NCBI GenBank assembly: GCA_964348385.1
Contig: CAYGCN010000001.1
Coordinates: 537-64,536, forward strand
Length of the DNA stretch: 64,000 bases
Direction of reading: 5' to 3'
Source: an uncultured Gemmatimonadaceae bacterium
Lineage (GTDB): Bacteria > Gemmatimonadota > Gemmatimonadetes > Gemmatimonadales > GWC2-71-9
Positions 1 to 62,914 of this stretch are shown piece by piece; position 1 is the first letter of the stretch, and the number at the start of each line of letters is the position of its first letter. The position numbers and the translations under genes were made by a program. Under the pieces are notes generated by a model. It had not been told where the DNA came from. It ran no database searches and was given only the letters and a program-made list of their open reading frames with translations.

Positions 1-2307
1 CGGGGCGGAGATCTGTATCGGCAGCGACGCCTGCCCGCCGTACGGCACGTTCAGCGTGCTCGGCATGCTCAGCACCTGCACCGATACGAGCACCGACAGC
101 GTACCCTCGCTGAAGCCGCTCGTGTTGGCGCGGATGAGGGTGGTGCCGGCACCGACACCGAACAGCTTGACCTGTCCCACAGTCTCGCCGAACGGGATGA
201 GGACCCCGCCGCCACCAACGGTATCAACGGCGACGACAGCAGAGTTGTCGGAGCTGACGCTCACGAAGGCGCCACCCGTGGGCGCCGGTGCGGTGAGCGT
301 AACCCGCACGAAGGCCGAGTCACTGAGGCGGATGCGGTTCGCGCCGATCAACTCGAGCAGGATCGTGGGATTCGGGAAGACCGCGGTTGCCGTGAACACC
401 GCGGGCGTGAGACCGTCCACGGCGGCTGTGGCCGTCTGCTCCACGCTGTTTGTGCCGAGCGTCCAGACGGACTGCGCCTGCCCCTCGGAGTCCGTGGTGC
501 TGGCCGACGGCGCGAGTGATCCCGTGAGCGTCGACCACGTTACGTCCGCACCGGGCACGCCGTTCCCCGCGGAATCCCGGACCTGGACCACCAGCGGTTC
601 AGGCAGCGCGGTGCCGGCCTCGGCGGACTGCCCCGATCCGGACACGACGAGCACCGTGTCGGGCTGGCCCACCGTTCCCGTCGCGGTGAACACCACCGGC
701 GGCAGCCCGGTGAGCGTCGCCGTGAGCGAGTTCCCGCCGAGGCCGATGGTCCAAGAGCCGACCCGCGCGATGCCGCTCGCGTCGGTCACCGCGGCGGCAC
801 CGGTGACACTGCCCCCACCGGCAGTGACGGCGAAGTTCACCGTGACACCTGCCACAGGGCTGCTCGCCGCATCACGAACCACGACGGCGGGAGCGACCGG
901 GACGGTCGTACCGGCGAGCGCCGTCTGGCCATCGCCATCACTGATCGCCATGGTCATGGCTCCACCCGGTCCCGTCGCGGTGGCGGTGAACATGACGGGC
1001 GTCAGCGTGTCGGCAGTCGCGGTGAGGGTGTTGAGGCCAATCGTGGGTCCGAGGACCCATGTGCCCACGGCGGCGAGACCTTCCGTGTCGGTCACCACCG
1101 AGTCCCCGGTCACGCTGCCGCCGCCGGATGCCACGGCAAACACGACGTCGACGCCGGGGATCGGGTTCCCCAGCGCGTCGGTGATCCGCACGGCGGGTGC
1201 CGTGGCGACGGCCGTGCCCACCACGGCGCTCTGTCCGTCGCCGGCCACGATCGTGATGCCGCCGACACCTGTCGCCTGCGCGGTAGCGGTGAAGCTCGCA
1301 GTGACACCGGTCAAGCGTGGTGTCGATGCCTGCACCGTCTGCGATCCCACCACGTTGCCGAGTGTCCACGAGACCGATGCTCGGCCGCCCGCATCCGTCA
1401 GCACGGAATCCGCCGAGAGCGATCCACCGCCGCTGGCCACCGTGAACCGCATCCACTGGTCAGCCACGCCGATGCCATCACTTGCCACCGCCCGCGCGAC
1501 CAGGGGATCCAGCAGTGCCGTGCCTGCCGGCGCCGATTGCCCGGATCCTGATTCCGCCACGAGCGTCGCCGGCGGCAAGAGCACCCCCACCGACGTGGTG
1601 TCCGACTGCCCGGTGAGCAGGCGCGCCATGACCCGGGCGCTGCCACGCTGCGGCTTGCCGATGACCCGCCCCGAGTCGGGCCGCGCGACATAGGCGTGTG
1701 CCGTATCCAGACAGACCCATTCGATCGGCGTGCCCGGAATCGGTGCGCCGGCGCTGTCGAGTGCCTGGGCCACGAGCAATGTCGATTCGCCGGCCATGAC
1801 GGTGGTGCCCTCAGTGAGGATCGCGACCGCGGCGGCGTTCGCTCCGATGCCGCAATACCGAAACGTCACGGGGACGAGTGGCGGCGGCCCCGAGGTGGCA
1901 GGCTGCACCGGCACGGGCCCCGCACAAAAGGCGGTGTCACCCGCCGGGGTCACCAGGGCGATCAACAGCTCGAGGGTCTCGTTCGGGTCGAGCATCGGAA
2001 CGGTGAACGTGAAGTCCACCGAATCGGTGCCCGCGGCAAAGGTCAAGACCGTGTCGCGGACGGTCTCGCCGCCGGGAACACGGCGAATCGTGACGCGGCC
2101 CGCGGAGAGCGGCACAATGCCGGCAGCGGCGCTCGCGAAGGAAGGCGCGACGGCCAGTGTGCCGGTGATGGGGAACTGGGGACCCGTCCGATCCGTGCAG
2201 TTGAGCACGATCGCACCCGCGACGGCGGCCCAGAAGAGCGTGCGCTTCAGAGCCGACCGGGGCTCGCGCCTTCCGGAATCGCGATCTGTCTGCGCTACGG
2301 ACTCCAT
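1..2307 (-). CDS. Large exported protein with tandem bacterial Ig-like repeats (first 769 codons; 3' end lies beyond window start)
   Basis: Absent from the ORF track because the frame runs off the window edge. The reverse frame ending at 2307 is open for all 769 codons; I hand-checked it at 1-60, 1228-1242, 1441-1500 and 2161-2307. ATG at 2305-2307 is followed by a basic region and a hydrophobic segment (KRTLFWAAVAGAIVL). Four ~100-aa modules each start G[DS]GQ[ST]A and contain VTD..G.A.V.WTLG....LTAT, which looks Big_1/invasin-like. No other listed minus-strand ORF lies in this frame. Confidence 0.8.
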   Translation of the reverse strand, partial: MESVAQTDRDSGRREPRSALKRTLFWAAVAGAIVLNCTDRTGPQFPITGTLAVAPSFASAAAGIVPLSAGRVTIRRVPGGETVRDTVLTFAAGTDSVDFTFTVPMLDPNETLELLIALVTPAGDTAFCAGPVPVQPATSGPPPLVPVTFRYCGIGANAAAVAILTEGTTVMAGESTLLVAQALDSAGAPIPGTPIEWVCLDTAHAYVARPDSGRVIGKPQRGSARVMARLLTGQSDTTSVGVLLPPATLVAESGSGQSAPAGTALLDPLVARAVASDGIGVADQWMRFTVASGGGSLSADSVLTDAGGRASVSWTLGNVVGSQTVQASTPRLTGVTASFTATAQATGVGGITIVAGDGQSAVVGTAVATAPAVRITDALGNPIPGVDVVFAVASGGGSVTGDSVVTDTEGLAAVGTWVLGPTIGLNTLTATADTLTPVMFTATATGPGGAMTMAISDGDGQTALAGTTVPVAPAVVVRDAASSPVAGVTVNFAVTAGGGSVTGAAAVTDASGIARVGSWTIGLGGNSLTATLTGLPPVVFTATGTVGQPDTVLVVSGSGQSAEAGTALPEPLVVQVRDSAGNGVPGADVTWSTLTGSLAPSASTTDSEGQAQSVWTLGTNSVEQTATAAVDGLTPAVFTATAVFPNPTILLELIGANRIRLSDSAFVRVTLTAPAPTGGAFVSVSSDNSAVVAVDTVGGGGVLIPFGETVGQVKLFGVGAGTTLIRANTSGFSEGTLSVLVSVQVLSMPSTLNVPYGGQASLPIQISAP
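379..1566 (-). repeat. Four tandem ~300-nt (about 100-aa) Ig-like coding repeats inside the 1..2307 gene
   Basis: Module starts GSGQS (aa 254), GDGQS (aa 356), GDGQT (aa 458) and GSGQS (aa 557) are spaced 102, 102 and 99 aa apart. Each ends ...FTATA. The repeats are diverged at the protein level and are not identical DNA copies. Confidence 0.7.
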
Positions 2308-3419
2308 TCGAGAAACAGCGTTCCCCTTGGCCCCCGGAAGTGAATGCGCTCAGTCCCCTGCACGAGGAACCCCGTGATCCCGCTTCCCTGCAGCACGGCC
2401 GCGAGCCCCGTCATGAGCTGGAAGCGGACGTCGCCGCCGTAGCGGAGCGCTTCACCGTTGATGTTGAACCCGGCCTCTCCCCCGGTATCCTCCGACGACC
2501 AGCGATACTCCGCCCGCGGGGTCACGAAGAGGCGTGCCGTCACGCGGAAGTCGTAGTGAAGCCCCGCGGCAAAGAGGTTCCCCCGCGGCAGGACCGCCGT
2601 TCCGATGGACGTCTGTTCCAGCTGCGCGCTCCCCCGATACACGTCGAAGGCATACAAGGTGAGCGAGCCATTCCCGATGCCCTGATTCAATGAGAAGTAG
2701 CCAATCACGCGATTGCCGATGCCGTTCGTCGAGTCACCGAACGCGTCGTTGCTTTGGTGGGCGAAGATACCTGCCACCCGGAGGTACGTGCGTCGAGCAA
2801 GCGGTCCTTCGGCACCGGCGCGGACGCGAACGTCCAGCCCCGGCTTGAGCTTGCGCTCATCGCCCACGATGGGGACGTAGTTGAACGGCTTGCGCACCGT
2901 TCCGCCCACGCCGATCGACCAGCCGGCACCGACGGGCAGGGCACCGCCGAACCCACCGCCCGCACTGCCGCCACTTCCCAGACTCGGCGCCTGGAAACCG
3001 ATGATGTCACTGGAGAGCACACCGAGAATGGCCAGCTCTTGCTCTTCGACCGTCTTGACACCCGTGGGGATTGTCGTCGTCGCGAACGCGATGAGCCGAC
3101 CGGGGATCACGTTCCACGACAGGCGCGCCTGCGTATCCAGCACACCCGAGATCTTGAGCGGCCCGTTTTGGCTCCCACCCCGGCTCCACAACTGGACGTG
3201 CCCGTACCCGGTCGAGAGTGCGAGCTCACCCACCCTCCCCAGTGGCACCGATATACCGACGGGAAACGCGAACTCCTCGACCTTGGAGAACGGCACGCCT
3301 TCGTCGAACCAGTATCCCTCCCCCGACGCCGAAACCGATATCCGAATGGGGAACTGCGCCCCAGCCCGCGACGCGCCTAGTGCCAGGACGATTCCGAGTA
3401 CGAAGGCCGCGCGTCTCAT
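2295..3419 (-). CDS. Outer-membrane beta-barrel protein, family unassigned
   Basis: Only the last 374 codons of track ORF 2295..4799 look real. ATG at 3417-3419 gives the signal peptide MRRAAFVLGIVLALGASRAGAQ. The protein has amphipathic strand-like segments, Gly-rich loops and an aromatic C-terminus (LFLEWSP). Its start overlaps the upstream stop as ATGA (3416-3419). Confidence 0.7.
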   Translation of the reverse strand: MRRAAFVLGIVLALGASRAGAQFPIRISVSASGEGYWFDEGVPFSKVEEFAFPVGISVPLGRVGELALSTGYGHVQLWSRGGSQNGPLKISGVLDTQARLSWNVIPGRLIAFATTTIPTGVKTVEEQELAILGVLSSDIIGFQAPSLGSGGSAGGGFGGALPVGAGWSIGVGGTVRKPFNYVPIVGDERKLKPGLDVRVRAGAEGPLARRTYLRVAGIFAHQSNDAFGDSTNGIGNRVIGYFSLNQGIGNGSLTLYAFDVYRGSAQLEQTSIGTAVLPRGNLFAAGLHYDFRVTARLFVTPRAEYRWSSEDTGGEAGFNINGEALRYGGDVRFQLMTGLAAVLQGSGITGFLVQGTERIHFRGPRGTLFLEWSP

Positions 3420-4774
3420 GGCAGTCGGAAGAAGATCCGAATCACACCCGAAGCCGTCGGTGGTGTCCCCAGGACGCGCACCGTGGTCGGGGGATTGGAC
3501 GAAGTGGTATTGGATCCCGTGCTGGTAGGAGTAATCGTCGGCGCCGTGACTTCGGCTTGCGTTCCCGCAATGTCGATGATCGTGGTGGTCAGGGCGGTCC
3601 CCTGTGGGGCGACGACCATCGGCGCGGGCGCGGGCGCGCTCACGGTCGCGAGCTGCGTAACCGCCGCCGGCGGGGCATCGACCACCTGCTGACCCGCGAC
3701 CGCCGCCTGGTGCGCCTCGCGGGCGGCGCGGAAATTCGGATCCGCCTGAACGGCCTGGGCGAAGTACATCGCTGCCGACCGGTAATCGCCGCGATCCTCG
3801 GCCTCCAGACCGTGGGAATAGGCCAGGAATGCGGCGAGGTCTTGGGTGCCGTTCTCGAGAATGAGACGGAACTCCGCCTGAGAGAGCTGATACCCAAGGA
3901 GGCGCGCAACGTCCACCACCAGTTGCTTCTCCATCCTGAGCAGGTCGCGCAGGTCGCCAGCCTGTCGCGTGGGCGGGCTTACCTCTCCCGTGCCCGCCAC
4001 CACACTCGCCTCCATGCGCGTGGCGCCTCGTGGGGGTATCGTCACCAGTCCCTGCACCAGTCGTCCCGCTCGAACCAGGTGCCCGACGCGAGCAGCTGTG
4101 GCCGGGTCGATTCGGCCCGTCTCGGCGAGCCTGAGCTCCTCGATCAGCACGCCGACCTGCAATCGCTCCACCATGGTGAAGCGGCGCAGCAGCGCGAGAT
4201 CGGTGGAAAGGATCTGCGCCAGTCCCCGTCGCAGCGGGCGGTACATGGAATCTCCCACGATGTCGATCGGCAGCACCGCGACCGTCGCGGGATCGCCCGG
4301 CGTTCGCCCCAGCTCGGCCTCGCGCGCCAGGGCCAGGCGAGCGTTGGTCATCGCGCGGTCGCGCCGGGCAATGCTCTGCCGCGCCCTCACCGACGGGGAT
4401 CCGGCCCGATCGGGGTGATCCTCCAGGTACCGCGCGTAGACGGCGAGGGCCTCGTCGTATTCTTGGACGCGCTCCAGGCAGCCACCCACGACGAGTGGGC
4501 CCAGCGCACGGTCCGGCCGCCGCTCCATGCCCGACCGCGCCACGACTGTCGCAGTGTCGCACCGATCCGCGGCGTACAGCGCGGCCGCATAGCGAAGCAG
4601 CGCGTCGCCATCGTTCGGGTGCGCGGCTAGCCGAGCTTCGAGGTCGGGGATCTCCTCCGGTGAAACCTGCTGCGCCACCCGCGGTGCACAGCCCGACACA
4701 CCGGTCACGAGGCTCACTACTAGCAGGGGGACGAAGGAACGGCGCCAGACGGAAGCGGTACGGATCTCGAACAT
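3416..4774 (-). CDS. Lipoprotein with TPR-like repeats and a CsgG/LpoB-like alpha/beta domain
   Basis: I chose the internal ATG at 4772-4774 (GGAG sits 6 nt upstream). It gives MFEIRTASVWRRSFVPLLVVSLVTGVSGC with the lipobox VSGC. TPR-like helices are present (ALLRYAAALY..., EYDEALAVYARYLEDHPD, YRSAAMYFAQAVQADPN). The segment VAVLPIDIVGDS...FTMVERLQVGVLIEELRL...GRLVQG resembles the CsgG/LpoB fold. The tail is Thr/Pro/Ser-rich. Confidence 0.65.
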   Translation of the reverse strand: MFEIRTASVWRRSFVPLLVVSLVTGVSGCAPRVAQQVSPEEIPDLEARLAAHPNDGDALLRYAAALYAADRCDTATVVARSGMERRPDRALGPLVVGGCLERVQEYDEALAVYARYLEDHPDRAGSPSVRARQSIARRDRAMTNARLALAREAELGRTPGDPATVAVLPIDIVGDSMYRPLRRGLAQILSTDLALLRRFTMVERLQVGVLIEELRLAETGRIDPATAARVGHLVRAGRLVQGLVTIPPRGATRMEASVVAGTGEVSPPTRQAGDLRDLLRMEKQLVVDVARLLGYQLSQAEFRLILENGTQDLAAFLAYSHGLEAEDRGDYRSAAMYFAQAVQADPNFRAAREAHQAAVAGQQVVDAPPAAVTQLATVSAPAPAPMVVAPQGTALTTTIIDIAGTQAEVTAPTITPTSTGSNTTSSNPPTTVRVLGTPPTASGVIRIFFRLP

Positions 4775-4989
4775 ACGACGCTCCGGCGCTCCCACCCACG
4801 ACGACAACAGGGGAAGCGACATCGGGACTGGAGGAGCGAACTTGCGCCGCGGGTCACGACCCGTCAAGACGCGGCGCCCAACCCGGGATCGACCGATTCA
4901 CGGTGCAAGTCCCGCGCCGCGCGCCTGCGTTTCGGTGAGACTACTCGATTACGTGCTGTTGGAGTCGGAGATCAGACGAACGACGAGGG

Positions 4990-5277
4990 CTACTCGCTGA
5001 GGGATCGGTAGAGATCTCGGAGGTGGTGCTCACGAAGATCGTGGACGCACTCCCACAGATCTGCCTCGCTCACGGCGCAGAAGATCTCTGCCGTCGAGGA
5101 CGTGAGGCCTGCCTCCGGCGAACCGAAGTGGAGCCGCCCCCGCCACACACCGTCTTCGGTGCGGCGCATTTCGAGTTGCAACGCCACGAGTCCGCCTTCG
5201 TATCGGAGAGGCGGAAGATCGTGCACGACTGGATCTGAGGGGTTCGGCGCACCGTAGCGGACCGGATTCCCCGCCAT
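4990..5277 (-). CDS. Hypothetical 95-aa protein (orphan)
   Basis: Track ORF 4990..5361 trimmed to the ATG at 5275-5277 (MAGNPVRYG...), because a sigma70-like promoter lies inside the longer ORF. I recognise no motifs. The sequence looks globular (…LRYEGGLVALQLEMRRTEDGVWRGRLHFG…). Confidence 0.5.
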   Translation of the reverse strand: MAGNPVRYGAPNPSDPVVHDLPPLRYEGGLVALQLEMRRTEDGVWRGRLHFGSPEAGLTSSTAEIFCAVSEADLWECVHDLREHHLRDLYRSLSE

Positions 5278-5303
5278 GAGCAACTCGTCGGTCGGTTTGC
5301 GCA

Positions 5304-5331
5304 AATATAAAGGGATTCGGCACTTACGCAA
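5304..5331 (-). promoter_or_regulatory. Sigma70-like promoter for the 95-aa ORF
   Basis: Minus strand reads TTGCGT (5331-5326), a 16-nt spacer, then TATATT (5309-5304). This is an AT-rich island in GC-rich DNA, about 26 nt upstream of the ATG at 5277. Confidence 0.5.
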
Positions 5332-5431
5332 TACAGCGAGGCCGTTGTCCGGCCCGGTCACGGCGGGTGTGAGCGGCTCACGACGTGTTGTGCAGACGCC
5401 TCGTTTGGGCTCGTCCGGCGCTGGCGGGCGT

Positions 5432-6586
5432 TCACCAGATCGGGTAGATGGGAACCGGGCTGAAGGTTGCGATGAACAGCACCATGGTGGCCACGCCCAG
5501 AAGCTTGCGGCCCGCCGGCAGCGGACGGTGAGGCTCGAGCACGCTGGGGTGCACCACTCTGCCCCTGCCGACCATCAGAATCAGGCCGGCCCACAGCCAC
5601 CAGAACCACGCGATCCACGGCGAGACTTCCCGACCCACCACATATCCTAGAACCAGCAGCCCCACGAGCGCCACGGTGCTCACCACCCCCTGGCGCCGTC
5701 CCAGCAGCGCGTAGAGCACGTGGCCACCATCGAGCTGTCCCAGCGGGAGGAGGTTGAGCGTGGTCACGAACAGGCCGAGCCACCCCGCGAAGGCCAGCGG
5801 ATGGAGCAGCACGGTTCCTTCACCTACCAGACGCTCGCGGAGCGCGGCGAAGATCGGGGAGTCACCGAGGTAGACCTGGAGCTCGGCGAGCATCACGAAC
5901 TGGGATGACGGACCGATCTCGGCAACGAGTTGTGAGCGGAGCAGCCCGGCTATCAAGGCGATTACCGCCACGACAAACCCGGCCCAGGGGCCCGCGGCGC
6001 CGACATCCATGAGTTGGCGCCGATCCACCACCTGGCTGCGGAGCCGGATGAACGCGCCGAACGTGCCAATGAAGTTGACGACCGGCGGTGCGGGCAGAAA
6101 GTACGGCGGCGACGCATTGAGGCCGTAGCGCCGGGCCCAGATGTAGTGCCCCGATTCGTGTGCGAGGAGAATAGCCATCAAGGCCATCGCAAACCCGAGC
6201 CCGGCAGGCATGCGGGTGAGCTCGCTCCACATTTCGCCGAGTATCTCCGGTGCGCGAGCGTAGTCGAGGTGAAACGGAAACGCCAACGGCAGCGACGAGC
6301 CGGTGAGCAACGCGCCGCTCATCCATACCGTGAGAAACGTGGCAAGGAACAGCACGCCGTGGAGCCACCAGCGCTCGCGCTGCGGTGCCACGAGCGGCGT
6401 GATGAGCACGAGACGATCGATGCCGTCGATGCGACTCCAGTAGTGCAGCCCGCCCCACGCGCGGAGGGCCGAGCGCAGCTCGGCCGACGGGCCATGGTGC
6501 GCCGGATCTACCAGGGCCTCGACGATCTCCCGATCGCGGGTCCTGATCGTGCGCCACCATGAAAGAAAAGGGATCAGGGCGTTCAC
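5432..6586 (-). CDS. Site-2 protease family (peptidase M50) membrane metalloprotease
   Basis: HExxH motif ([11 protein letters not shown]), multiple TM segments, and [14 protein letters not shown], the second M50 signature. Confidence 0.85.
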
Positions 6587-6594
6587 GGCGCCCC

Positions 6595-6623
6595 TTGACG
6601 CCCCTCGGGGCGACCCGTATCCT
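6595..6623 (+). promoter_or_regulatory. Sigma70-like promoter upstream of rho
   Basis: TTGACG (6595-6600), a 17-nt spacer, then TATCCT (6618-6623). This would give a leader of about 125 nt before the GTG at 6754. Confidence 0.5.
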
Positions 6624-6753
6624 TACGCAACCCACTCATCCAGTAGCTATCCCCAAGAGACGCTCAGCCTCACGACGCGATCCGAATGCGCCCGGCGCAC
6701 GGGCCGCGGCACTCTCACCCGACTCGGGTCACCCGACGGAGACATCCAGCACC

Positions 6754-8007
6754 GTGGATATCGCAGAACTCAAACGGAAATCGGTCGCCGAGCTCCACGC
6801 ACTCGCCGAAGAGTTGAACATCACCAACTACTCAGGCCTCCGCAAGCAGGATCTCATCTTCCGCATCGAACAATCGCTCCTGGATTCGGACACGGTACTC
6901 CGCGGGGAAGGCGTGCTCGAAATCCTTCCGGAAGGCTACGGATTCCTGCGCAGTGCCGACTGGAACTACTTGTACGGTCCCGACGACATCTACGTGAGCC
7001 CAAGCCAGATCAAGCGGTTCGATCTGCGCACCGGCGACACCGTACTCGGCCAGGTCCGTCCCCCCAAGGAAGGCGAGCGCTATCTGGCGCTGCTCAAGGT
7101 CGAGCAGGTCAACGCCGAGGATCCCGAGAAGGCCAAGCATCGCATCGCCTTCGACAACCTCAAGCCGCGCTACGCCGATCGCCGGATCTGGTTGGAGCAG
7201 ACCTCGGGCGACCTGTCCATGCGCGTCATGGACCTGCTGACTCCGGTCGGCTTCGGTCAGCGCGGGCTGATCGTGTCTCCGCCGAAAGCGGGGAAGACCA
7301 TTCTCCTGCAGAAGATGGCGAACTCGATCGCGCAGAATCACCCCGAGGCAGTGCTCATCGTGCTCCTCATCGACGAGCGACCCGAAGAGGTCACGGACAT
7401 GGAGGAGAACGTCGAGGGCGCCGAGGTGATCGCGTCGACCTTCGACGAACCCGCCGATCGTCACGTGCAGGTCGCGGATATGGTGATCGAGAAGGCCCGC
7501 CGGATGGTGGAGCACGGACGCGACGTGGTGATCCTGCTCGACTCGATTACCCGGCTCGCCCGCGCGCACAACGTGGTCATCCCGCACTCGGGGAAGATCC
7601 TCTCGGGTGGCGTCGACGCTAATGCCCTGCAGAAGCCGAAGCGGTTCTTCGGCGCGGCACGGAACATCGACAGCGGCGGCTCGCTCACCATCATCGCGAC
7701 GGCGCTCATCGAGACCGGCAGCCGTATGGACGAGGTGATCTTCGAGGAGTTCAAGGGGACGGGTAACATGGAGTTGGTGCTCGATCGACGCATCGCCGAC
7801 CGACGGATCTATCCCGCCATCGACGTGCAGCGCAGCTCGACGCGGAAAGAGGAACTGCTGCTCGAGCCCAACGCCCTGAACAAGATCTACCTGCTCCGCA
7901 ACTTCCTGGCGGACATGCCGACCGTGGAGGCCACCGAGTTCCTGCTCGAGCGCATGAAGCGCACCAAGACGAACAAGGAATTCTTCGCCACCATGCAGGA
8001 GGGATGA
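6754..8007 (+). CDS. rho: Transcription termination factor Rho
   Basis: Track ORF 6559..8007 trimmed to the in-frame GTG at 6754 ([23 protein letters not shown], a typical Rho N-terminus; 417 aa). The longer form would overlap the divergent M50 gene and the predicted promoter. Walker A is PPKAGKT, and the Rho C-terminus is present ([19 protein letters not shown]). Confidence 0.9.
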
Positions 8008-55596: not shown

Positions 55597-56490
55597 CTAG
55601 GTCCGCGGCACCATCACGCTGATCGCGTGCGGCACGATGCGGGCGGTGAACGGGGTCCACCCGGCCGCCTCGCCGTCGTACTGCACCGGCAACGGCTCCT
55701 CCGGTTCGACAACGACCTCGCGACCCCGGGCGAACTTGATACGGAAATTGTCCTCGGCCAGACCGCTGGCCAAGCGCCACAACGCGTGCGCACCTTCCGT
55801 CACGCTCTTGGCATTGACAATGAAGACGTCGAACACCCCGTCGTCGGGGACCACGCCCTTCCGCAGGCGCAGAAACGGCGGGACGATTTCCCCACAGTTC
55901 GCGACGAGCACCATCGCGGCATCCGCATGGATCGGCGTCCCGTCGACCGTGAGCCGATGCGGGACGGCCTTGAGTCGTGCGATCGCCCCGAGACCGGTGG
56001 CGACGTACGCCGCCATGCGCCATCGTCGCTTGGCCGCCCCGGTCGTCTCCGTCATGAGCACGGCGTCGAACCCGGCCCCGGCGCCCACGGCGAAGTAGTG
56101 GGGTCCGTCGTCCCTCGGGAGTATCCCGAGGTCGATCGGGCGAGGCCGACCGCGAATCGCCACCCGCGCGGCGGCCGCGGGCCGCCGTGGCAGCCGCAGG
56201 TTCCCGGCAAGGAGATTCCCCGTCCCGCCAGGGATGAGGGCCACCGGCACTTCGTAGTGGACCATGCCGGCCACCGCCTGCATGGTCGTGCCGTCGCCGC
56301 CGTACACGGCCACGAGATCGACACCGCCGTCGACCCCCGCGCGCGCCAGGTCCTTGGCATGGCCGATGCGCGACGTCCCCTCGACCTCCACATTCCATCC
56401 GTCGCGCTTGAACACCTTTACCACGGTGTCCACCACCTTGAGGTTCGCTCGGGCGGCGACGGGATTGAAGATCAAGAGCGCTCGCGCCAC
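55597..56490 (-). CDS. Diacylglycerol/lipid kinase catalytic-domain protein (YegS/BmrU/LCB5 family)
   Basis: Trimmed to the GTG at 56488-56490 (TAGTG overlap with the tamB stop). LLIFNPVAAR, VAVYGGDGT, LIPGGTGN. Confidence 0.8.
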   Translation of the reverse strand: MARALLIFNPVAARANLKVVDTVVKVFKRDGWNVEVEGTSRIGHAKDLARAGVDGGVDLVAVYGGDGTTMQAVAGMVHYEVPVALIPGGTGNLLAGNLRLPRRPAAAARVAIRGRPRPIDLGILPRDDGPHYFAVGAGAGFDAVLMTETTGAAKRRWRMAAYVATGLGAIARLKAVPHRLTVDGTPIHADAAMVLVANCGEIVPPFLRLRKGVVPDDGVFDVFIVNAKSVTEGAHALWRLASGLAEDNFRIKFARGREVVVEPEEPLPVQYDGEAAGWTPFTARIVPHAISVMVPRT

Positions 56491-59400
56491 TAGTAGTGCT
56501 TCTCCCAGAACAAGTCGGCCCCGAATTGGTAGTTCGCCGCGGACTGCGCGGACGGGTTCTCGCAGCTGGTCAGCGGATCCACGCTCGCCGCGACCAGCCA
56601 CTGCCGGCTCAAGCGAAACTCGAGGCTCGCCCCGACACCAAACGACGTAGCCTGCCGCCGGCACCACCGTGGGCTGGCAGTGAGAAACGCCGTGGTGCCC
56701 AACACCTGAAACTGCTTGCCCACGGCGACCTCCGCACCACTCAGCCCGCTCACCGTGGTGGTCGGCCGAATCTGAAGGTAGTCGAGCGGGATGCCCAAGT
56801 CCGAGATCAACGCGTACTCGATCTGTCCCGAGAACGCCGTGGTGAGCCACTGGGTGAACAGCCGCGACTCCAGGCCACCGCCGGGGCCTTCTCTGAGCGT
56901 CGGGGCACCGAACACCAGGTAGTTGATGATCTCGGGCTCCGACAGCGGGGGCTGGAAGTCACTGGACAGGGTGAGCCGAGGATCGTATAGGGTTCCGCCG
57001 ATGTGCACATCCACGTTCACGTCTTCGCCGGTCGTCCCGCGTACGACGTGACGGGCGTCGATATCCAGGTCCGCGTTCAGATCGGAGGTGCCGAGATACC
57101 GGATCTGTCCCCGCGTGACGGTGAAGTCGCGGTTGGTCCCCAGGCCCAGCTGCAATCGATAGACGCCGCGCGGCGCCTCGAGCACCCCGTCGAGCCGATA
57201 CTGCCGCCGTCGCTTGCTGACGAACACGTTCCCGGCCAGCTGAACGTTCGCCTCCGTCGAGCGCAGCCAGAAATCCCGCCCCATGTCTACGCGGAGACTG
57301 TCGATGCGCAGGCTGTCCAGAAAGCGACTCTGGAACTCGGCGCCGAGCCCTTGCTGGCGCACGAGCGCCGTGTCCACGAACTGCGCGTACAGGGAATCCT
57401 CGAGGTTGATGATCTCCTTGGTCACGAGGTCGGCGAAGTACAGGACACCGCGGGTGGTGGTGGCGTTGCCGCTCAGGCGGGCCTGGTACAGCGGACCGTC
57501 GAGCTGCACCCGCGCCGTCGTGGAGAGCGTGAGGTACCCCCGCACGTCGATGGTACGGAAGTTCGCCGACGTGATACTCAGCGCCAGAATGGGCTTGCTC
57601 AGCTCCTCGAAACGAACGTAGCCTCCCACCGTTGCGGTCCCCGATCCGCTTTGGAGTGAAAGGGCGTCCACCCAGACGGTGTCGCCCGAGAGAGAGAGCC
57701 GTCCGTCCACGGCCTCATGCCGGACCCCGAGGGCCGGGAACGTCGCGCCGCCGTTCCTGATTGCGAGTTGTCCCGTGAGGCGTGGACGTTCCCACGTGCC
57801 CTCGATGCCGAAGTCGGCATCGAAGCTTCCACTGGTCTCTCGAACCTGTGGCAGGGTGGTTTCGAGCAGGGCGAGATCCACATCCTCCGCCCTCGCGCGC
57901 ACGAGGACCGGGCCCGGCAGCCGCCGTTGCTCCACACCGGTCAGCGCGAGATCGAGCGGAAGCTCGACCGCAACGGTCAGAATGGGGACAGCGAGCCTCC
58001 GCAACTCGAAATCGCCGCGTAGCCGCTGGTCGCGATAGTCGAACACGCCCTGCGTGTAGGGAGCGCTGAAGTTCCGGTAGCGGACGTCCCGCAGGTTGGC
58101 GGCGAGCGTCAACACCGGCGAGCGAGCCGTGCCACCGAGCGTGAACGTGCCGCTCAGCTCACCGGTCGCATCTTCCGGATCGCGAAATGCCAGCACCATG
58201 ACGTCGGCGAACTGCAACGCGTCAATCGATCCTTCCAACACCCCTTCGCCCCGGAACGGCCAGCGGCCACGGACGGACACCACGCCCGGGCCGAGGGTAT
58301 TCCGCAGCACGACCTCGGTGAAGGTGAGTCCGCTGTCGTCCATCGCGATCGCGGCGCCGGGATCCAGGAACCAGGGTCCCGAGGCCAGACTCAATCCGAG
58401 CGAATCGAATACCAACTGGGTAGCCGTCGAATCGCGGAGCCAACGCCCACCGCCGATCCACGCACCGTGTCCCAGTCGCGATTGTGCCTGCCATCCCAGT
58501 GCCTCGAGCTGCCCGTGCAGGGCCACCCGCAGGTCGCCGAGGGCGACGGCCCCAACCGCCACCGAATCGATCGACGCATCCAGTCGGAGGCTGCGGGTCG
58601 CGGATACCCAGCTGAAGACGCCGCCCGCGCGGGAGACGTACGCGTCAGCTCGGCGCAGCTGTGCAAAGCCGAGGTCCGCCACCACCTGGAAGCCACCGAC
58701 GGATCCTACCATCCGGCCGGCGGCCTGTGCGGTCCCCGAGGGCCGCGCTACCGTCTCCTCCGCAGTCTCCAGCGAGCCGAGCAGCCGTTCGAGCACGGGC
58801 TCGAAGATCCCGATCGAATCCGTGACGGCCGTGAACCGCAGGGTGTCCCGCACTGCGGTGTCGAGGCCCACCCCGCCAGCGGCGTGGATGCGGAGGGCGT
58901 AGGCCTCGATGCTCAACGTGTCGAAGTTCACCCGCGAGGGAGCGAGCACCGCCACGGCCGTCGCGGTGTCGAGGTCGATACGCTGCACGGATGACCGGCC
59001 GAGCGAGACGGCCGCACGAAACGGGTACGCCTCACCCGCCGCGAACCCCCCCGATCCGACCATCGCCCCGCTCAGCACCGTGTTGGGAAATGCCGGCGAC
59101 AGCCGCTCGAGGTCGAGACGCTCCGTGCGGACATCCAATTGGTGCGCCCCCGAGGCATCCTCGAGGAAGAACAACGCGCCTTCGGCCTCGAGCACCCCGG
59201 CATCGCCCTCGACCCTCCCCCTGAGCGCCAGAGAGTCAACGAACCCCGCGAGGGCGACCGTCCCGTGCCACGCCCCTCTGAGGTCGAGCCCCTCGAAGCT
59301 CGAGTGCAATCCCTCGAGACGCAGGGAATCGAAAGCAAGTTCGGTCCACACGCCCAGCCTGTCGCCACGTGCGTCGAGGGTGAGCCGACCCGTCGCCGCG

Positions 59401-60824
59401 CTCTCCGGCAGCGGGGCATCGCGGTGTGTGAGCCGTCCTTCATACGTCGCATTCAGCCACGGCCCGTTCAGCACTCCTGATCCGGCCAGTCGCCCGCGGA
59501 GCAGCATGGCAGGGACCAGACGCTGCACGGTCGCCAGGCTGATGTCCGCCTCCCGAATCGTGAAGCCGCGAAACACGAAATCCTCCTCGCTCACCGTGAC
59601 GATGCCGGTGCCACGGGCCCGCGAGACAGGTTCTCCCTCCACCAGGAGGTCGCGAAAGGCGGCGTCCAACTCGAGGGTGACTCGTTCCGCCGGTCCGTCG
59701 GCCGACACACGGCCCGTCACGCGTCCCACGAACGGCAGCGTGTCCAGGTAGCCGCGCACGTACTCGAGATCGAAGTCGTCCAGATCGAGGGCGGTTTCCC
59801 GGAATGCCCAGCGCGCGCCCGGTCCGACCACCATGCCGAGGCGTCCCCGCAACCGGCCGCCGTCACGGCCCCGAACATCGAGGTCGTATCCGGCGAAGGC
59901 CACTGCGTCGTTTCCCTGCGTCCGGGTCTGGAATCGCGCCTGACCTCGAAGGCCAGCCGGCAGCGCTGGCACCAGCCCCAGAACGTCGTCGGTCTCGGCC
60001 GGCGACACCCGACCCTCGAGATCGATACCGAGCGCGCCCGCGATCCACGTCACCGTGCCCTCGAGATCTCCCTCGGTGTGCGGCAGCTCGATCCGGTCCA
60101 ACGCGAGCCCCAACGAATCGCGCCACACCCGCGCCGTCCCACGCAGATCCCACACGCTCAGCACGGGATCCGACACGTCGGTGCGCAGCCGAGCCACCTC
60201 GACCAGGATGGGGTCGTCCCGCCTGGGCGACGAGACCCGGAGATAGTCCAACCGGGCGTCCAGACGCTCGAAGCGACGCACCTGAAGCGGGCCGTCGGGG
60301 CCGGGCTCCCGCTCGCGTACCGCCACGGTCGTGTCGGGCGCAGGTGTCTTCACGACGATCCTACCGTCGGAAATCGTGACGTCGCCGAAGGCGATGAGCC
60401 TCCCCGGCGTGGGTTCGGCGCCGGAGTCGCTCGGAAGCAGCGTCTCGAAGTTGAACGGGGTGCCCGACCGTGTCTGCACGACCGTGATCTCGGGTCGGAA
60501 CAGGCGCAGCTCACCGAACACGATCCGCCCGCGCAGGAACTCCCGAACGCCGTAGCCGATCCCGACCAGCTCCGCGCGCAGCACGGGAGATCCGTCTTCC
60601 GTGCTGACCGTGACGTCACGAAGCTCGAGCCCCCGCAGGAACGAGCCGCCGACGTCGCCCACCTCGACCGATCCCATGACGGCGCGATTCGCCGCCTCGA
60701 GCGCCCACGCCACCACCGCGAGTCGGCCGCCCTGCGTCCGCAGCGCCGCACCGGCGAAGCCGAGCGTCACGCCGGCGACCCACGCCGCCATCACCGCAAG
60801 CGCGACGGCCAAACGACGGCCCAT
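56490..60824 (-). CDS. tamB: Translocation and assembly module subunit TamB-like protein (AsmA-like/DUF490), 1444 aa
   Basis: N-terminal TM anchor MGRRLAVALAVMAAWVAGVTLGF, a very long beta-rich repetitive body, and a conserved DUF490-like C-terminus (...GKQFQVLGTTAFLTASPRW...FGADLFWEKHY). It sits immediately downstream of an Omp85 gene. Confidence 0.8.
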   Translation of the reverse strand: MGRRLAVALAVMAAWVAGVTLGFAGAALRTQGGRLAVVAWALEAANRAVMGSVEVGDVGGSFLRGLELRDVTVSTEDGSPVLRAELVGIGYGVREFLRGRIVFGELRLFRPEITVVQTRSGTPFNFETLLPSDSGAEPTPGRLIAFGDVTISDGRIVVKTPAPDTTVAVREREPGPDGPLQVRRFERLDARLDYLRVSSPRRDDPILVEVARLRTDVSDPVLSVWDLRGTARVWRDSLGLALDRIELPHTEGDLEGTVTWIAGALGIDLEGRVSPAETDDVLGLVPALPAGLRGQARFQTRTQGNDAVAFAGYDLDVRGRDGGRLRGRLGMVVGPGARWAFRETALDLDDFDLEYVRGYLDTLPFVGRVTGRVSADGPAERVTLELDAAFRDLLVEGEPVSRARGTGIVTVSEEDFVFRGFTIREADISLATVQRLVPAMLLRGRLAGSGVLNGPWLNATYEGRLTHRDAPLPESAATGRLTLDARGDRLGVWTELAFDSLRLEGLHSSFEGLDLRGAWHGTVALAGFVDSLALRGRVEGDAGVLEAEGALFFLEDASGAHQLDVRTERLDLERLSPAFPNTVLSGAMVGSGGFAAGEAYPFRAAVSLGRSSVQRIDLDTATAVAVLAPSRVNFDTLSIEAYALRIHAAGGVGLDTAVRDTLRFTAVTDSIGIFEPVLERLLGSLETAEETVARPSGTAQAAGRMVGSVGGFQVVADLGFAQLRRADAYVSRAGGVFSWVSATRSLRLDASIDSVAVGAVALGDLRVALHGQLEALGWQAQSRLGHGAWIGGGRWLRDSTATQLVFDSLGLSLASGPWFLDPGAAIAMDDSGLTFTEVVLRNTLGPGVVSVRGRWPFRGEGVLEGSIDALQFADVMVLAFRDPEDATGELSGTFTLGGTARSPVLTLAANLRDVRYRNFSAPYTQGVFDYRDQRLRGDFELRRLAVPILTVAVELPLDLALTGVEQRRLPGPVLVRARAEDVDLALLETTLPQVRETSGSFDADFGIEGTWERPRLTGQLAIRNGGATFPALGVRHEAVDGRLSLSGDTVWVDALSLQSGSGTATVGGYVRFEELSKPILALSITSANFRTIDVRGYLTLSTTARVQLDGPLYQARLSGNATTTRGVLYFADLVTKEIINLEDSLYAQFVDTALVRQQGLGAEFQSRFLDSLRIDSLRVDMGRDFWLRSTEANVQLAGNVFVSKRRRQYRLDGVLEAPRGVYRLQLGLGTNRDFTVTRGQIRYLGTSDLNADLDIDARHVVRGTTGEDVNVDVHIGGTLYDPRLTLSSDFQPPLSEPEIINYLVFGAPTLREGPGGGLESRLFTQWLTTAFSGQIEYALISDLGIPLDYLQIRPTTTVSGLSGAEVAVGKQFQVLGTTAFLTASPRWCRRQATSFGVGASLEFRLSRQWLVAASVDPLTSCENPSAQSAANYQFGADLFWEKHY

Positions 60825-62914
60825 CAGAACGGCTGCCCCACCGAGAAGTGCAACCGCCAGCGACCCAGAAACGAGCGGGTCGGCCGATAGGTCTGCGTCA
60901 CCAGCACCAGATCGGGACCTTCCTTTTTATAGAGTGGCGTCTCGTCCGTGGGATACGGATTGAACGCGACGTCCAGGCGGATCGGCCCGAGTGGGGAGGC
61001 GAGCCGCAGTCCGACCCCGGGTGTGATTCGCAGCGCACTTCCTCGAGCCACGTCGCTGGTCCGATCCACCACTCGGCCCGCGTCCACGAAGACGGCGGCC
61101 GCGAGCCGGTTGGCAAACGCCGCGAGCGGGACCCGGTATTCCGCATTCAGGATGATCAACTCGTTCCCGCCGATCGGCGAGGTGCGAATGACGCTGTCCG
61201 TATCCAACACGCGGACCTTGGGCCCCAACTCGTTCTGGCCGTAGCCGCGGACCGTGCTGGCCCCGCCCGCGTAGAACCGCTCGTCCGGCGGCACCAGCCG
61301 CAGATCCTGTGCGCCTGACCCCAGAGTAGCCGGGAAGATGCGGCCGACTTTGGCGCGGACGCTCAGCACACTGTGGCGGCCGGTGCGCCGGTACACCGAG
61401 TACTCCAGTGTGCCCTTGGCGAAGCGGATCAGCGAATCGGAGCCGATGACCGGCGACGCCCACCGAATCTCCGATCCCAGCCAACTCCCGCCGGTGGGGT
61501 TGAGCACCGAGTTCCGCACATCGCGTACCGCCGACAGCGACAGCGTGGCACGCAGACGATCCTCCGTGAACACCCTGGTGTCCTCGGCGCGGCAGACGTT
61601 CAGAAAGGTGCACAGGGCCGCCGGGTCGGCTCTCGTGCTCCCGTACGAGAGCCCGTACGACAAGGTCACCGGAATCCGTGGCTCGGGACGGTGGGTGATG
61701 CTGACCTCACCGCCGACGGCCTCGCGGAGATAGGCCCGGTACTCAGTGTGGCGTTCTCCATACACGGAGACGTTCGCATTCGTCCGGCGCGAGAACACGT
61801 AAGGCTCGTGCCACGTGAGGGTGAGGTTGTAGTTCAGTTTCAAGCGACTCGTGTCCTCATCGGCCAGCGCGCCGCAAACGGAGTTCTGGAACCCGGCGTC
61901 GAGCGGTGTGCCGGCGCCGATCTGCGATGCCTGTCCGCGAAGCTGCAGCGATCGGCCATTGCCGAGGAAGTCGAGGAGGGTCCAACTCCCCAGTGACCGA
62001 AAGCAGTCGATGGTCCCGTAGCCACCCCCAAGGCGAAGACGCTGTCGTGGTCCCTCGGCGAGGCGGATCCGGACGGTCACGGTGGAGTCCACCGGACTCA
62101 CGGCACGCGCCGAATCGACGAGCCCCACGCTCACATAGTTGAACAGGTCGGTGCGGTACAGGTCGAGCTGGCTCTGATACAGGTCACGCAGCCGGAACGT
62201 GCTCCCGGGCTCCACGGAGATCACGCGTCGCACCACCTGCTCATCCACCTCGCGGAGCCCCATGATCTCCACTCGCCCCACCGTGGTCTGCGGACCCGGA
62301 TCCACCTCGAAGTCCACGGTCCCGGTGCGGCTCTCGAGATCGATGTCGAAGTTCCGGAACACCTCGGCGAACGGGTAGCCGCGGTTCGCGAGCCGAACAC
62401 GCACGGTGTCGGCGGACGCCAACATCAGCACGCGGTTGAACGGATCGCCGACGCGGAGCGGAAACGTGCTCATGAGCTCCCGCGTCGCGATGATGTCATC
62501 CTGACCACGCACCGTGAACCGCGCGAGCCGGATGGGTTCCCCCTCCGTGATGACGAACCGCAGCCTGACCGCGTCGTCGGATCGGTGCACCACCGTGTCG
62601 ACCGTGGCATCCGCGTACCCACTCTGTCGATACAGGGCCAGGATCCGCAAAACATCTCGCTGGAATTCCACCTCGTCGAAGTAGCGCCGCTCGCCGAACC
62701 CCATCCAGCGCACCAGGGACGAGCGCGCGAAGAAGCTCGAGACCGAGGTGGCGATGGAGATGGCGAGCGTGTTGTCGTCGATGGCCCTGTTGCCCTGGAA
62801 CGCGAGCCCTCGGACCACCGGTCCGCGAACGTCACGAGTCTGCCCGGTCACGCCGCCGGGCAGCGAGATCATCACGAACCCCCAAAGAAGGCAGGCGGCA
62901 CGAATTGACCTCAT
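60824..62914 (-). CDS. tamA: Omp85-family outer-membrane protein assembly factor (TamA/BamA-like; POTRA repeats + D15 barrel)
   Basis: Signal peptide MRSIRAACLLWGFVMISLPGGVTGQ. POTRA-like modules (VRGLAFQGNRAIDDNTL, FVITEGEPIRLARFTVRG). Barrel motifs RFYAGGASTVRGY and FVDAG. C-terminus LHFSVGQPF. Confidence 0.8.
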   Translation of the reverse strand: MRSIRAACLLWGFVMISLPGGVTGQTRDVRGPVVRGLAFQGNRAIDDNTLAISIATSVSSFFARSSLVRWMGFGERRYFDEVEFQRDVLRILALYRQSGYADATVDTVVHRSDDAVRLRFVITEGEPIRLARFTVRGQDDIIATRELMSTFPLRVGDPFNRVLMLASADTVRVRLANRGYPFAEVFRNFDIDLESRTGTVDFEVDPGPQTTVGRVEIMGLREVDEQVVRRVISVEPGSTFRLRDLYQSQLDLYRTDLFNYVSVGLVDSARAVSPVDSTVTVRIRLAEGPRQRLRLGGGYGTIDCFRSLGSWTLLDFLGNGRSLQLRGQASQIGAGTPLDAGFQNSVCGALADEDTSRLKLNYNLTLTWHEPYVFSRRTNANVSVYGERHTEYRAYLREAVGGEVSITHRPEPRIPVTLSYGLSYGSTRADPAALCTFLNVCRAEDTRVFTEDRLRATLSLSAVRDVRNSVLNPTGGSWLGSEIRWASPVIGSDSLIRFAKGTLEYSVYRRTGRHSVLSVRAKVGRIFPATLGSGAQDLRLVPPDERFYAGGASTVRGYGQNELGPKVRVLDTDSVIRTSPIGGNELIILNAEYRVPLAAFANRLAAAVFVDAGRVVDRTSDVARGSALRITPGVGLRLASPLGPIRLDVAFNPYPTDETPLYKKEGPDLVLVTQTYRPTRSFLGRWRLHFSVGQPF

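Follow-up and report, generated by a model that had tools for sequence, protein, structure and literature searches.

We describe here a group of three adjacent genes at one end of a 64,000-nucleotide stretch of DNA from an uncultured Gemmatimonadaceae bacterium (contig CAYGCN010000001.1; G+C content approximately 68%), which was analysed as a whole and is called the window below. All three genes are read from the minus strand (Table 1). Gene 1, LIPO, encodes a lipoprotein with tetratricopeptide repeat (TPR)-like helices; gene 2, BARREL, encodes a predicted outer-membrane beta-barrel protein; gene 3 encodes a lipoprotein built of immunoglobulin (Ig)-like repeats and is open at the edge of the window. 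A first-pass annotation of the sequence had proposed three minus-strand open reading frames (ORFs) joined by two overlaps, and all of these are present where it had placed them. Judging from genomic context, we suggest that the module is probably an outer-membrane barrel with a TPR accessory protein that serves surface display or export, in a form not described before.

Table 1. Coordinates of the three genes, of the segments of their products and of one further small ORF in the window.
Feature	Position in window	Strand	Size or residues	Basis
Gene 1 (LIPO)	3416-4774	-	452 aa	ORF and translation
LIPO signal peptide and lipobox VSGC (Cys29)	4688-4774	-	aa 1-29	sequence
LIPO N-terminal TPR-like helical block	4304-4660	-	aa 39-157	Pfam and AlphaFold2 model
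LIPO alpha/beta domain of TolB-N/LpoB/CsgG-core type	3899-4294	-	aa 161-292	Pfam and Foldseek
LIPO C-terminal TPR block	3650-3880	-	aa 299-375	weak Pfam matches and AlphaFold2 helices
LIPO disordered Thr/Pro/Ser/Gln-rich linker and terminal strand	3419-3622	-	aa 385-452	AlphaFold2 model, conservation
Gene 2 (BARREL)	2295-3419	-	374 aa	ORF and translation
BARREL long loop between strands 5 and 6	2967-3068	-	aa 118-151	DSSP of model, conservation
Gene 3, N-terminal part (open at window edge)	1-2307	-	769 codons	
Gene 3 signal peptide and lipobox-like VLNC (Cys37), then T-D-R-T-G-P	2197-2307	-		sequence
Gene 3 conserved N-terminal domain	1858-2196	-	~aa 38-150 (~115 aa)	phmmer/jackhmmer, alignment
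Gene 3 Big_2-like Ig domain	1573-1857	-	~aa 151-245	profile similarity to Big_2 domains in relatives
Gene 3, Big_1-type Ig modules (four in tandem, ~100 aa each)	358-1560	-	~aa 250-650	Pfam, repeat scan
Small conserved ORF without known family	4990-5277	-	95 aa	public gene calls (L004-L007) and own cluster

Reading the sequence directly, we find that the TGA stop codon of LIPO overlaps the ATG start codon of BARREL in the string CC-ATG-A (3416-3419), and that the end of BARREL overlaps the start of gene 3 (ATG at 2307) by 13 nucleotides running from ATG to TAG (ATGGAGTCCGTAG, 2295-2307). For comparison, we fetched loci from 44 species-level Gemmatimonadota and several metagenome contigs (denoted by L-numbers), called their ORFs and clustered them; the caller was a simple one based on G+C content at third codon positions, and counts for these loci are therefore approximate. 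All relatives that carry names are metagenome-assembled genomes of Gemmatimonadota. LIPO and BARREL are coupled in 38 of 38 related loci, by ATGA in 33 and by TGATG in five, and public gene calls in close relatives contain the identical 13-nucleotide overlap between BARREL and gene 3. This conservation indicates that neither overlap arose by chance. In a scan for promoters and terminators the number of signals was at chance level, and Rfam gave no match in positions 1-7000 of the window.

The LIPO product starts with a signal peptide and a lipobox whose cysteine, Cys29, is at least 90% conserved in the family alignment. Its first helical block is matched by the Pfam families TPR_14, TPR_19 and TPR_6 and is modelled by AlphaFold2 (AF2) with a predicted local distance difference test score (pLDDT) of mostly 85-98, the value for the whole model being 76.9. 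A second helical block beyond the alpha/beta domain has weak matches to TPR_16, TPR_8 and TPR_Slam, the last of which also weakly matches 39 of 51 LIPO homologues. The protein ends in a tail in which a "(V/I)xDIAxTQAE" motif is followed by a linker and then by an amphipathic strand, "GxIRIxFRLP" (or "TGTIRIxFRLP"). The pLDDT falls below 50 for residues 385-446, while conservation is seen at the terminal residues G443, R446, I447, F449, L451 and P452; approximately 38 loci show both motifs, and the terminal strand can be recognised even in the most distant members. Its alternation of hydrophobic and polar residues resembles the beta-signal of outer-membrane proteins, as far as the sequence can tell. 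The lipobox, the TPR-like helices and the Thr/Pro/Ser-rich tail thus agree with what had been read from the sequence at first.

The alpha/beta domain between the two helical blocks had been likened to the CsgG/LpoB fold. At the level of fold the likeness stands: the Pfam profile CsgG (PF03783) matches residues 181-245 with 26.8 bits (gathering score 20.8) and scores above the cut-off in 51 of 51 LIPO homologues (best E-value 9e-10), and Foldseek superposes the domain on the N-domain of TolB (1c5k, root-mean-square deviation [rmsd] 3.5 over 143 columns; TolB range 3.5-4 Å) and on LpoB (4q6l, rmsd 3.0, TMt 0.64), with GNA1162 also matched. It does not reach as far as the pore-forming CsgG. The match spans profile positions 36-99 of 210 only (approximately 64 positions), the domain is approximately 130 amino acids long, and no CsgG structure is found among the top 50 Foldseek matches of LIPO, so that LIPO is not a CsgG channel. 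A search of PDB sequences with the LIPO profile returned TPR proteins only, and no CsgG chain, LpoB or TolB. A weak match of LIPO to TIGR04510 ("peptide modification system cyclase") extends over the alpha/beta domain and the TPR region. Its homologues form more than 783 clusters in Gemmatimonadota and are named either "TPR repeat protein" or "CsgG/HfaB family protein"; the second name is misleading.

The BARREL product has a type I signal peptide (residues 1-21, AGA|Q), and the barrel begins directly after it. The AF2 model (pLDDT 87.2, predicted TM-score 0.79) has 16 long strands with short turns on one side. The long loop between strands 5 and 6 contains a helix together with a Gly-rich motif that is invariant (F142, G148, G150, G151), and in the model it could possibly act as a constriction or gate inside the barrel. 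We assigned the two faces of each strand by alternation and hydrophobicity. On this assignment, of the 33 strand positions with a conservation of 90% or more, 27 point to the polar face, which is presumably that of the lumen; among these are eight Arg, four Asp/Glu and three Tyr. The arginines R198, R200, R214, R237, R262, R306 and R326 are taken to line the lumen.

This 374-amino acid barrel had been described as standing outside the named families, and further searches bear this out. It belongs to no Pfam or NCBIfam family. Among 58 homologues compared with Pfam, ten have matches to the generic OMP_b-brl family only, one has a faint match to the PelB barrel (E-value 0.064) and one a faint match to PorV, while DUF560 is matched by none of the 58 at an E-value of 1 or less. 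Foldseek against the PDB returns generic barrels with no more than 13% identity; the best is the 16-stranded barrel of BcsC (9b8a, 6tzk; TMq 0.56), and AlgE is matched with a TMq of 0.48-0.49. The family profile finds nothing among PDB sequences, including those of BcsC, AlgE, PgaA and PelB. For the module proteins taken together, neither NCBIfam nor Pfam supports BamD, LptD/E, PorP/SprF, PorV, FadL or the C-terminal domain of type IX secretion. The BARREL family comprises 91 close clusters and 1,281 representatives at 50% identity, of which 881 have an E-value of 1e-10 or less. The named members that we looked up are all called "hypothetical protein," and the top 150 relatives have the amino acid composition of high-G+C organisms. 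Two apparent fusions of LIPO to BARREL were met with. We rejected P0296 as Rosetta-stone evidence, since an internal signal peptide is retained behind an odd "RHRHRH" read-through and the fusion is probably a frameshift artefact; P0251 is a possible case.

The Ig modules reported in gene 3 are real. Pfam Big_1 matches four stretches (E-value 5.7e-22), and the internal repeat has a period of approximately 100 amino acids; residues 273-415 also give a weak match to the NCBIfam model "intimin_all" (18 bits, against a cut-off of 1400). The picture of a passive Ig passenger did not hold, because the protein has a lipobox of its own and, between this lipobox and the Ig modules, a conserved domain (hereafter the N-domain) that we regard as an anchor. 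Neither of these two features, nor the conserved C-terminal motif of LIPO, had been noted in the first-pass annotation. The N-domain belongs to no Pfam family and has a beta-sandwich-like sequence pattern. When its profile was compared with the PDB, nothing was found beyond the Big_2 part, where alignment positions 110-170 match LigA. In the window the lipobox of gene 3 carries Asn at the -1 position (VLNC, 2197-2205), where close relatives have Ser (VLSC, LLSC); this atypical residue may affect lipidation.

The full length of gene 3 can be estimated from its relatives, which have at least 1,129 amino acids; the contigs of the close relatives L004-L009 all break inside the gene. In L010 the homologue is split into ORFs of 1,190 and 549 amino acids, the first of which lacks approximately 105 N-terminal residues according to the N-domain alignment. 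From these fragments and the missing residues we estimate a protein of approximately 1,800 amino acids or more. The frame breaks at a near-identical repeat of approximately 250 amino acids (L010:14988-15000), so the split is probably a frameshift or a misassembly. The C-terminus of the L010 homologue contains no recognised sorting domain.

The N-domain is a signature common to cargo proteins that are otherwise unrelated. We defined the family by jackhmmer searches of the ORFs in the fetched loci and by a pattern scan of metagenomes. In 57 (23 + 34) distinct proteins we find the same head, in which a hydrophobic segment is followed by a cysteine, usually within a canonical lipobox. All 57 have Asp or Glu at position +3 or +4 after this cysteine, and "GP" follows at approximately +6 to +8. 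Some carry two acidic residues (CSDD, CDDA, CTED), but only one acidic position is conserved. LIPO itself has no acidic motif after its cysteine. The order in these third proteins is head, N-domain, Big_2 and then an unrelated distal part, which may be a Big_1 array (as in the window), a set of PD40 propellers, a repetitive beta-helix-like array, a combination of BACON, CarboxypepD_reg and SdrD_B domains, or a cohesin. This N-domain lipoprotein family has not been recognised before, and the BARREL family and the cargo-head domain are both unannotated.

Most of the Gemmatimonadota loci share one gene order: a gene for Rho in one direction and, in the other, an M50 protease gene, some small ORFs, LIPO and BARREL. 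The gene after BARREL varies. An N-domain gene lies directly downstream of BARREL on the same strand in 21 of approximately 35 evaluable species, and within three genes in 23. The trio also recurs amid different flanks. In L054 and L055, where the flanking genes are unrelated and BARREL is 26% identical, the third protein has at least 1,220 amino acids, a lipobox and the N-domain (E-value 7e-13); in L056 the third protein is a minimal one of 330 amino acids (lipobox, N-domain and Ig domains) whose gene is joined by an ATGA overlap; L098 provides a further case. In L047 a transposase-like gene stands between BARREL and an N-domain giant (L047:10772-11872), so that the trio can be interrupted. 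From this survey, the three-gene unit proposed in the first-pass annotation emerges as conserved and co-inherited, not as a chance stack.

The third protein of at least five loci (L040:11032-21031, L011, L014, L030, L049) has a cohesin at its end. Next to its gene comes that of a small cohesin lipoprotein, and then tandem genes for giants of 1,100-1,400 amino acids. Most of these giants combine cohesin, dockerin, Ig and right-handed beta-helix/NosD domains, with most matches above the Pfam gathering scores. The layout is that of an anchoring scaffoldin with dockerin-borne cargo. Cohesin-dockerin systems act outside the cell, and since they are known only there, we regard these variants as the strongest hint that the head anchors its protein at the surface. 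We found no literature on a cohesin-dockerin system in Gemmatimonadota. The idea of surface display, which had been put forward from the sequence of the trio, thus gains from these variants, while export or display itself is what we infer from gene neighbourhoods.

Genes of signalling and secretion systems are found near the pair in other genomes. A 62-amino acid ORF made up of no more than a HisKA phospho-acceptor helix pair lies directly upstream of LIPO in approximately 12 loci (e.g., L023:8231-8419, L052:4640-4828); in the window, which has no such ORF, there is a non-coding gap of 215 nucleotides at 4775-4989. One protein, P0193 (543 amino acids), appears to fuse the HisKA ORF to LIPO. 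In L046 a gene for a Ser/Thr kinase directly follows BARREL (L046:11327-13663), and the C-terminal part of this kinase repeats the arrangement of alpha/beta domain and TPRs seen in LIPO, with a similarity to the LIPO module that is weak (E-value 0.012, 19% identity). Approximately eight loci have kinase genes clustering with that of L046, and in part shorter, near the pair; these are the only other recurrent neighbour that we saw. On two metagenome contigs, one of 624 kb (L001:1-14700) and one of 604 kb (L003:1-15600), distant copies of the pair lie inside type VI secretion clusters (TssK, DotU, IcmF, VgrG) and are preceded by an extra small CsgG/LpoB-like protein. There the N-domain Ig gene is found on the other strand at a distance of three genes, where it heads a convergent row that also encodes a Ser/Thr kinase and an FHA-trypsin protein; we take this arrangement to recall the TagQRST-PpkA-Fha control pathway.

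Several neighbouring genes of the window may be mentioned in their own right. The conserved 95-amino acid ORF of Table 1 has no Pfam match and is placed between LIPO and the M50 protease gene (5432-6586 in the window), as it is in approximately 21 loci; it is a possible member of the module. At 6559-6586 the longest ORF for Rho (482 amino acids, ATG at 6559) overlaps the start of the divergent M50 ORF by 28 nucleotides, and because relatives are annotated with a Rho of 417 amino acids, the real start of Rho is probably further downstream. Near the other end of the window, at 56490-62875 on the minus strand, there are a TamB-like gene (1,440 amino acids) and a TamA/Omp85-like gene (60824-62875; 683 amino acids, two POTRA matches), the latter separate from the trio. 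This pair is adjoined by a gene for an S13 D-Ala-D-Ala carboxypeptidase at 62969-64000 on the plus strand. The remaining window consists of core-genome genes (ruvABC, tgt, yajC, def/fmt).

How might the three proteins work together? In the reading that we lean toward, and hold to be nearly an even call on genomic grounds, the trio is a pathway for surface display or export that consists of conserved machinery and variable cargo. The machinery would be the 16-stranded barrel, with its conserved Arg-rich interior, and the LIPO protein, anchored in the outer membrane and facing the periplasm; the overlap of stop and start codons would allow the two to be made in a fixed ratio. The third component would contribute a conserved head and a freely exchangeable distal part. 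After Sec export and lipidation, LIPO would receive the cargo head in the periplasm, and BARREL would offer it a socket in the outer membrane or a way across. The distal array, which far exceeds what the periplasm could hold, would then come to be displayed on the surface while its N-terminal head keeps it tethered. In favour of this reading we count the coupling of LIPO and BARREL, the constancy of this pair beside a varying next gene, the frequent N-domain gene downstream (also in distant relatives with other flanks), the shared head on unrelated tails, the cohesin variants, the acidic residue behind the cysteine with its likeness to the export signal of Bacteroidetes surface lipoproteins, the conserved polar face of the barrel, and Slam as a precedent. 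The gene anatomy, folds, family sizes, coupling and synteny are observed; contact among the three proteins, their topology and their exposure at the surface are inferred.

A bolder version of this pathway, which we put forward tentatively and consider rather doubtful, is that the pair is an unrecognised outer-membrane translocon for surface lipoproteins, the Gemmatimonadota answer to the problem of acidic-signal export. The head (lipidated cysteine, acidic residue, GP and N-domain) would be threaded or flipped through the Arg-lined barrel with the help of LIPO and its C-terminal strand. Each genome would supply many cargoes, including the cohesin scaffoldins of a cellulosome-like layer. Gemmatimonadota are often grouped near the Fibrobacteres-Chlorobi-Bacteroidetes superphylum, and we know of no identified exporter for the surface lipoproteins of Bacteroidota. 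The conserved acidic residue close behind the cysteine of the N-domain proteins resembles the lipoprotein export signal of that phylum. The Bacteroidetes signal consists of a polar residue and then at least two acidic residues at positions +2 to +5 after the lipidated cysteine (PMC5080379), whereas the N-domain head has one conserved acidic residue plus "GP."

This last difference is among the points that weigh against display or export by the trio. In approximately one-third of the genomes (about a dozen) BARREL is followed by unrelated housekeeping or metabolic genes or by a transposase; L052 and L053 are further counter-examples to the trio, and in L097 the gene after BARREL encodes a different lipoprotein of 298 amino acids, with a faintly TonB_C-like C-terminus and no N-domain (L097:9237-10133). 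Most N-domain lipoproteins are encoded away from the pair. In a reverse test, 40 metagenome loci were fetched by the conserved N-domain pattern, and among the 27 with enough upstream DNA, BARREL lies directly upstream in only seven (with LIPO also present where visible); the others encode giant lipoproteins of up to 2,260 amino acids at unrelated sites. A gene of approximately 600 amino acids upstream of such non-adjacent N-domain genes was considered as a new partner and rejected, as it encodes an acyl-CoA dehydrogenase that marks one orthologous locus. Because of the seven in 27, we regard the N-domain as a common, multi-copy head for which adjacency to the pair is not obligatory, and adjacency alone is therefore no proof of dedication. 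A multi-copy family would also fit one machine with many cargoes, by analogy with Slam, where only about half of the genes adjoin a lipoprotein gene. As for the barrel, the 16 strands and in-folded loop of the model would also fit a plain porin, and its best structural match (BcsC, see above) is a polysaccharide channel. We see neither an energy source nor a periplasmic chaperone for the module, and the way in which non-lipidated dockerin-bearing giants cross the outer membrane is left unexplained.

Other explanations account for part of these observations. The pair could be an envelope-structural or cell-wall-regulating complex in which LIPO, by means of its LpoB/TolB-N-like domain, its TPRs and its flexible tail, contacts peptidoglycan synthases or hydrolases or a Tol-Pal-like machinery, BARREL is its outer-membrane anchor or a porin, and gene 3 is a mere neighbour by inherited synteny. 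The domain superposition on TolB and LpoB speaks for this, and there is a precedent in the outer-membrane lipoproteins LpoA and LpoB, whose TPR-like domains or disordered linkers extend to the peptidoglycan synthases. That MltG/YceG, RuvX and Rho are encoded in the same core-genome block as the pair would agree with a housekeeping function, and the topology of BARREL is like that of a 16-stranded porin with an L3-type loop. The linker of LpoB, however, lies between anchor and domain, while in LIPO the domain adjoins the anchor and the linker is C-terminal. The trio is also found away from MltG and Rho in unrelated contexts (L054, L056, L098 and L001/L003), and a strict coupling to a barrel with so conserved an interior would not be expected for a generic porin; we think a cell-wall role unlikely, if worth keeping in view. 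We judge it distinctly unlikely that the pair exports a polymer of the synthase-dependent type, with an AlgK/PelC-like scaffold under a channel and the Ig/Big_2 lipoprotein as a polymer-binding or polymer-modifying accessory. It would explain the matches of BARREL to BcsC and AlgE, the faint PelB-barrel match of one family member, and an architecture of TPR, lipoprotein and barrel as in AlgK/AlgE and PelB/PelC; a conserved Arg-rich lumen would suit an anionic polymer, and some of the neighbouring giants have pectate-lyase-like beta-helix/NosD domains. A TM-score of 0.56 is nevertheless expected of any two 16-stranded barrels, and apart from the faint PelB-barrel match the sequence searches show no relation to BcsC, AlgE, PgaA or PelB. 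The top 50 Foldseek matches of LIPO do not include PelC, no synthase or polymer-modifying genes are conserved beside the pair in approximately 50 loci, and a polymer exporter would give no reason why genes for N-domain lipoproteins with exchangeable tails repeatedly stand beside the pair.

The neighbouring kinases raise the question of whether the module is an envelope sensor, in which the TolB-N-like domain and TPRs of LIPO sense a ligand or partner, as such units would in many Ser/Thr kinases of Gemmatimonadota, and BARREL and the Ig lipoprotein relay the signal from outside to kinases or proteases. The kinase of L046 and its cluster mates, the match to TIGR04510, the type VI secretion context with its kinase and FHA-trypsin string, the HisKA-only ORF before LIPO and the M50 site-2 protease gene as the usual upstream neighbour are all consistent with such a role. 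Against it, the kinase similarity is weak, the kinases themselves recur near the pair in approximately eight loci, the type VI secretion adjacency was seen on only two related metagenome contigs, no kinase, HisKA or type VI secretion gene is near the trio in the window, and giant, exchangeable, adhesin-like tails are atypical of sensors; a sensor seems improbable to us. Finally, LIPO and BARREL might cooperate with each other while gene 3 is an unrelated surface protein in a variable downstream slot. That the slot does vary, with metabolic genes or a transposase in approximately one-third of the loci, and that N-domain lipoproteins are mostly encoded elsewhere would both follow. If a genome has a few to a few dozen N-domain genes, though, one of them should stand directly after BARREL by chance in approximately 1% of cases or less, and the observed frequency is approximately 60%. 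The adjacency also persists in lineages with different flanks, including as overlaps (13 nucleotides in the window, ATGA in L056), and we consider the absence of any link very improbable.

The transport of lipoproteins and giant adhesins to the surface is largely unknown in diderm bacteria outside the Proteobacteria. If display or export by the trio is correct, the module is a concrete candidate for such transport, apparently widespread in Gemmatimonadota, with two coupled genes whose products have confident models and with a recognisable cargo signature. It would also point to a possible cohesin-dockerin assembly at the surface of a diderm phylum for which the literature that we searched describes none. 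Even if the export idea is wrong, three large families with absent or misleading annotation have been defined.

We compared the module with known systems and found no description of one like it in the literature searched. CsgG and HfaB are, like LIPO, lipoproteins; the CsgG profile is matched and NCBI gives this name to some LIPO homologues. The domain of LIPO differs in that its strands are short and it has no segment for the two transmembrane hairpins of the 36-stranded pore, and the module has a separate barrel. Genes for CsgE, CsgF, curlin-type proteins, HfaA or HfaD are found neither in the Pfam annotation of approximately 15 loci nor in the ORF clusters. LpoB and the N-domain of TolB share the fold at an rmsd of 3-4 Å, and LpoB is likewise an outer-membrane lipoprotein with a long disordered linker. 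In LIPO, by contrast, TPR blocks stand on both sides of the domain, the linker runs out into a conserved strand, and the gene is strictly coupled to that of a barrel. Like the trio, intimin and invasin combine a barrel, which in their case is N-terminal and 12-stranded, with a long run of Big_1-type Ig modules. Here, however, barrel and array are separate polypeptides, and the Ig protein starts with a signal peptide and lipobox of its own. In FhaC/FHA systems a 16-stranded barrel, the dedicated transporter for one adhesin, is similarly encoded beside giant beta-helix or Ig proteins. Neither Pfam nor NCBIfam matches IAT_beta, usher, Omp85, POTRA or two-partner secretion domains on the trio proteins; together with the lack of CsgE/F and curlin matches, this agrees with the initial impression that the set is not one of the curli, intimin or usher gene sets. 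The cohesin-ending third proteins and the dockerin-bearing giants of five loci are reminiscent of cellulosome scaffoldins. They differ in their anchor, which would be an N-terminal lipid plus N-domain in a diderm envelope instead of S-layer homology domains or a sortase product, and in the window the product of gene 3 lacks a cohesin and bears the Ig array itself.

The closest likenesses are to exopolysaccharide exporters and to Slam. A combination of TPRs, lipoprotein and barrel is the architecture of AlgK/AlgE and PelB/PelC (PMC9734138, PMC12141448), PelC being a small lipoprotein that forms a ring under the PelB barrel (PMC12141448). These exporters share with the module a TPR scaffold and a barrel of 16-18 strands, and AlgK is a separate TPR lipoprotein encoded beside AlgE. 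The partner in our module is instead an Ig-domain lipoprotein, with no polymer pathway: no synthase, glycosyltransferase, cyclic di-GMP receptor or polymer-modifying gene is conserved beside the pair in the loci surveyed, and the one glycosyltransferase gene that we saw, in L097, is on the opposite strand at a distance of 6 kb. To our knowledge, Slam has been described only in Proteobacteria. Slam proteins consist of a TPR domain and a barrel, and approximately 52% of Slam genes adjoin a gene with a lipobox (PMC5449769). The module similarly joins a TPR part to an outer-membrane barrel, has, in our reading, constant machinery and variable cargo, and frequently adjoins a lipobox lipoprotein gene (approximately 60%-65% of loci). 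It differs in that its barrel has 16 strands and is not DUF560, while that of Slam is predicted to have 14; its TPR part is a separate lipoprotein with a TolB-N/LpoB-like domain and a C-terminal tail; and its cargo is Ig-like where that of Slam is TbpB-like. By analogy, and without homology, the module would be most like Slam (type XI secretion) or a split TPR-barrel exporter in its working.

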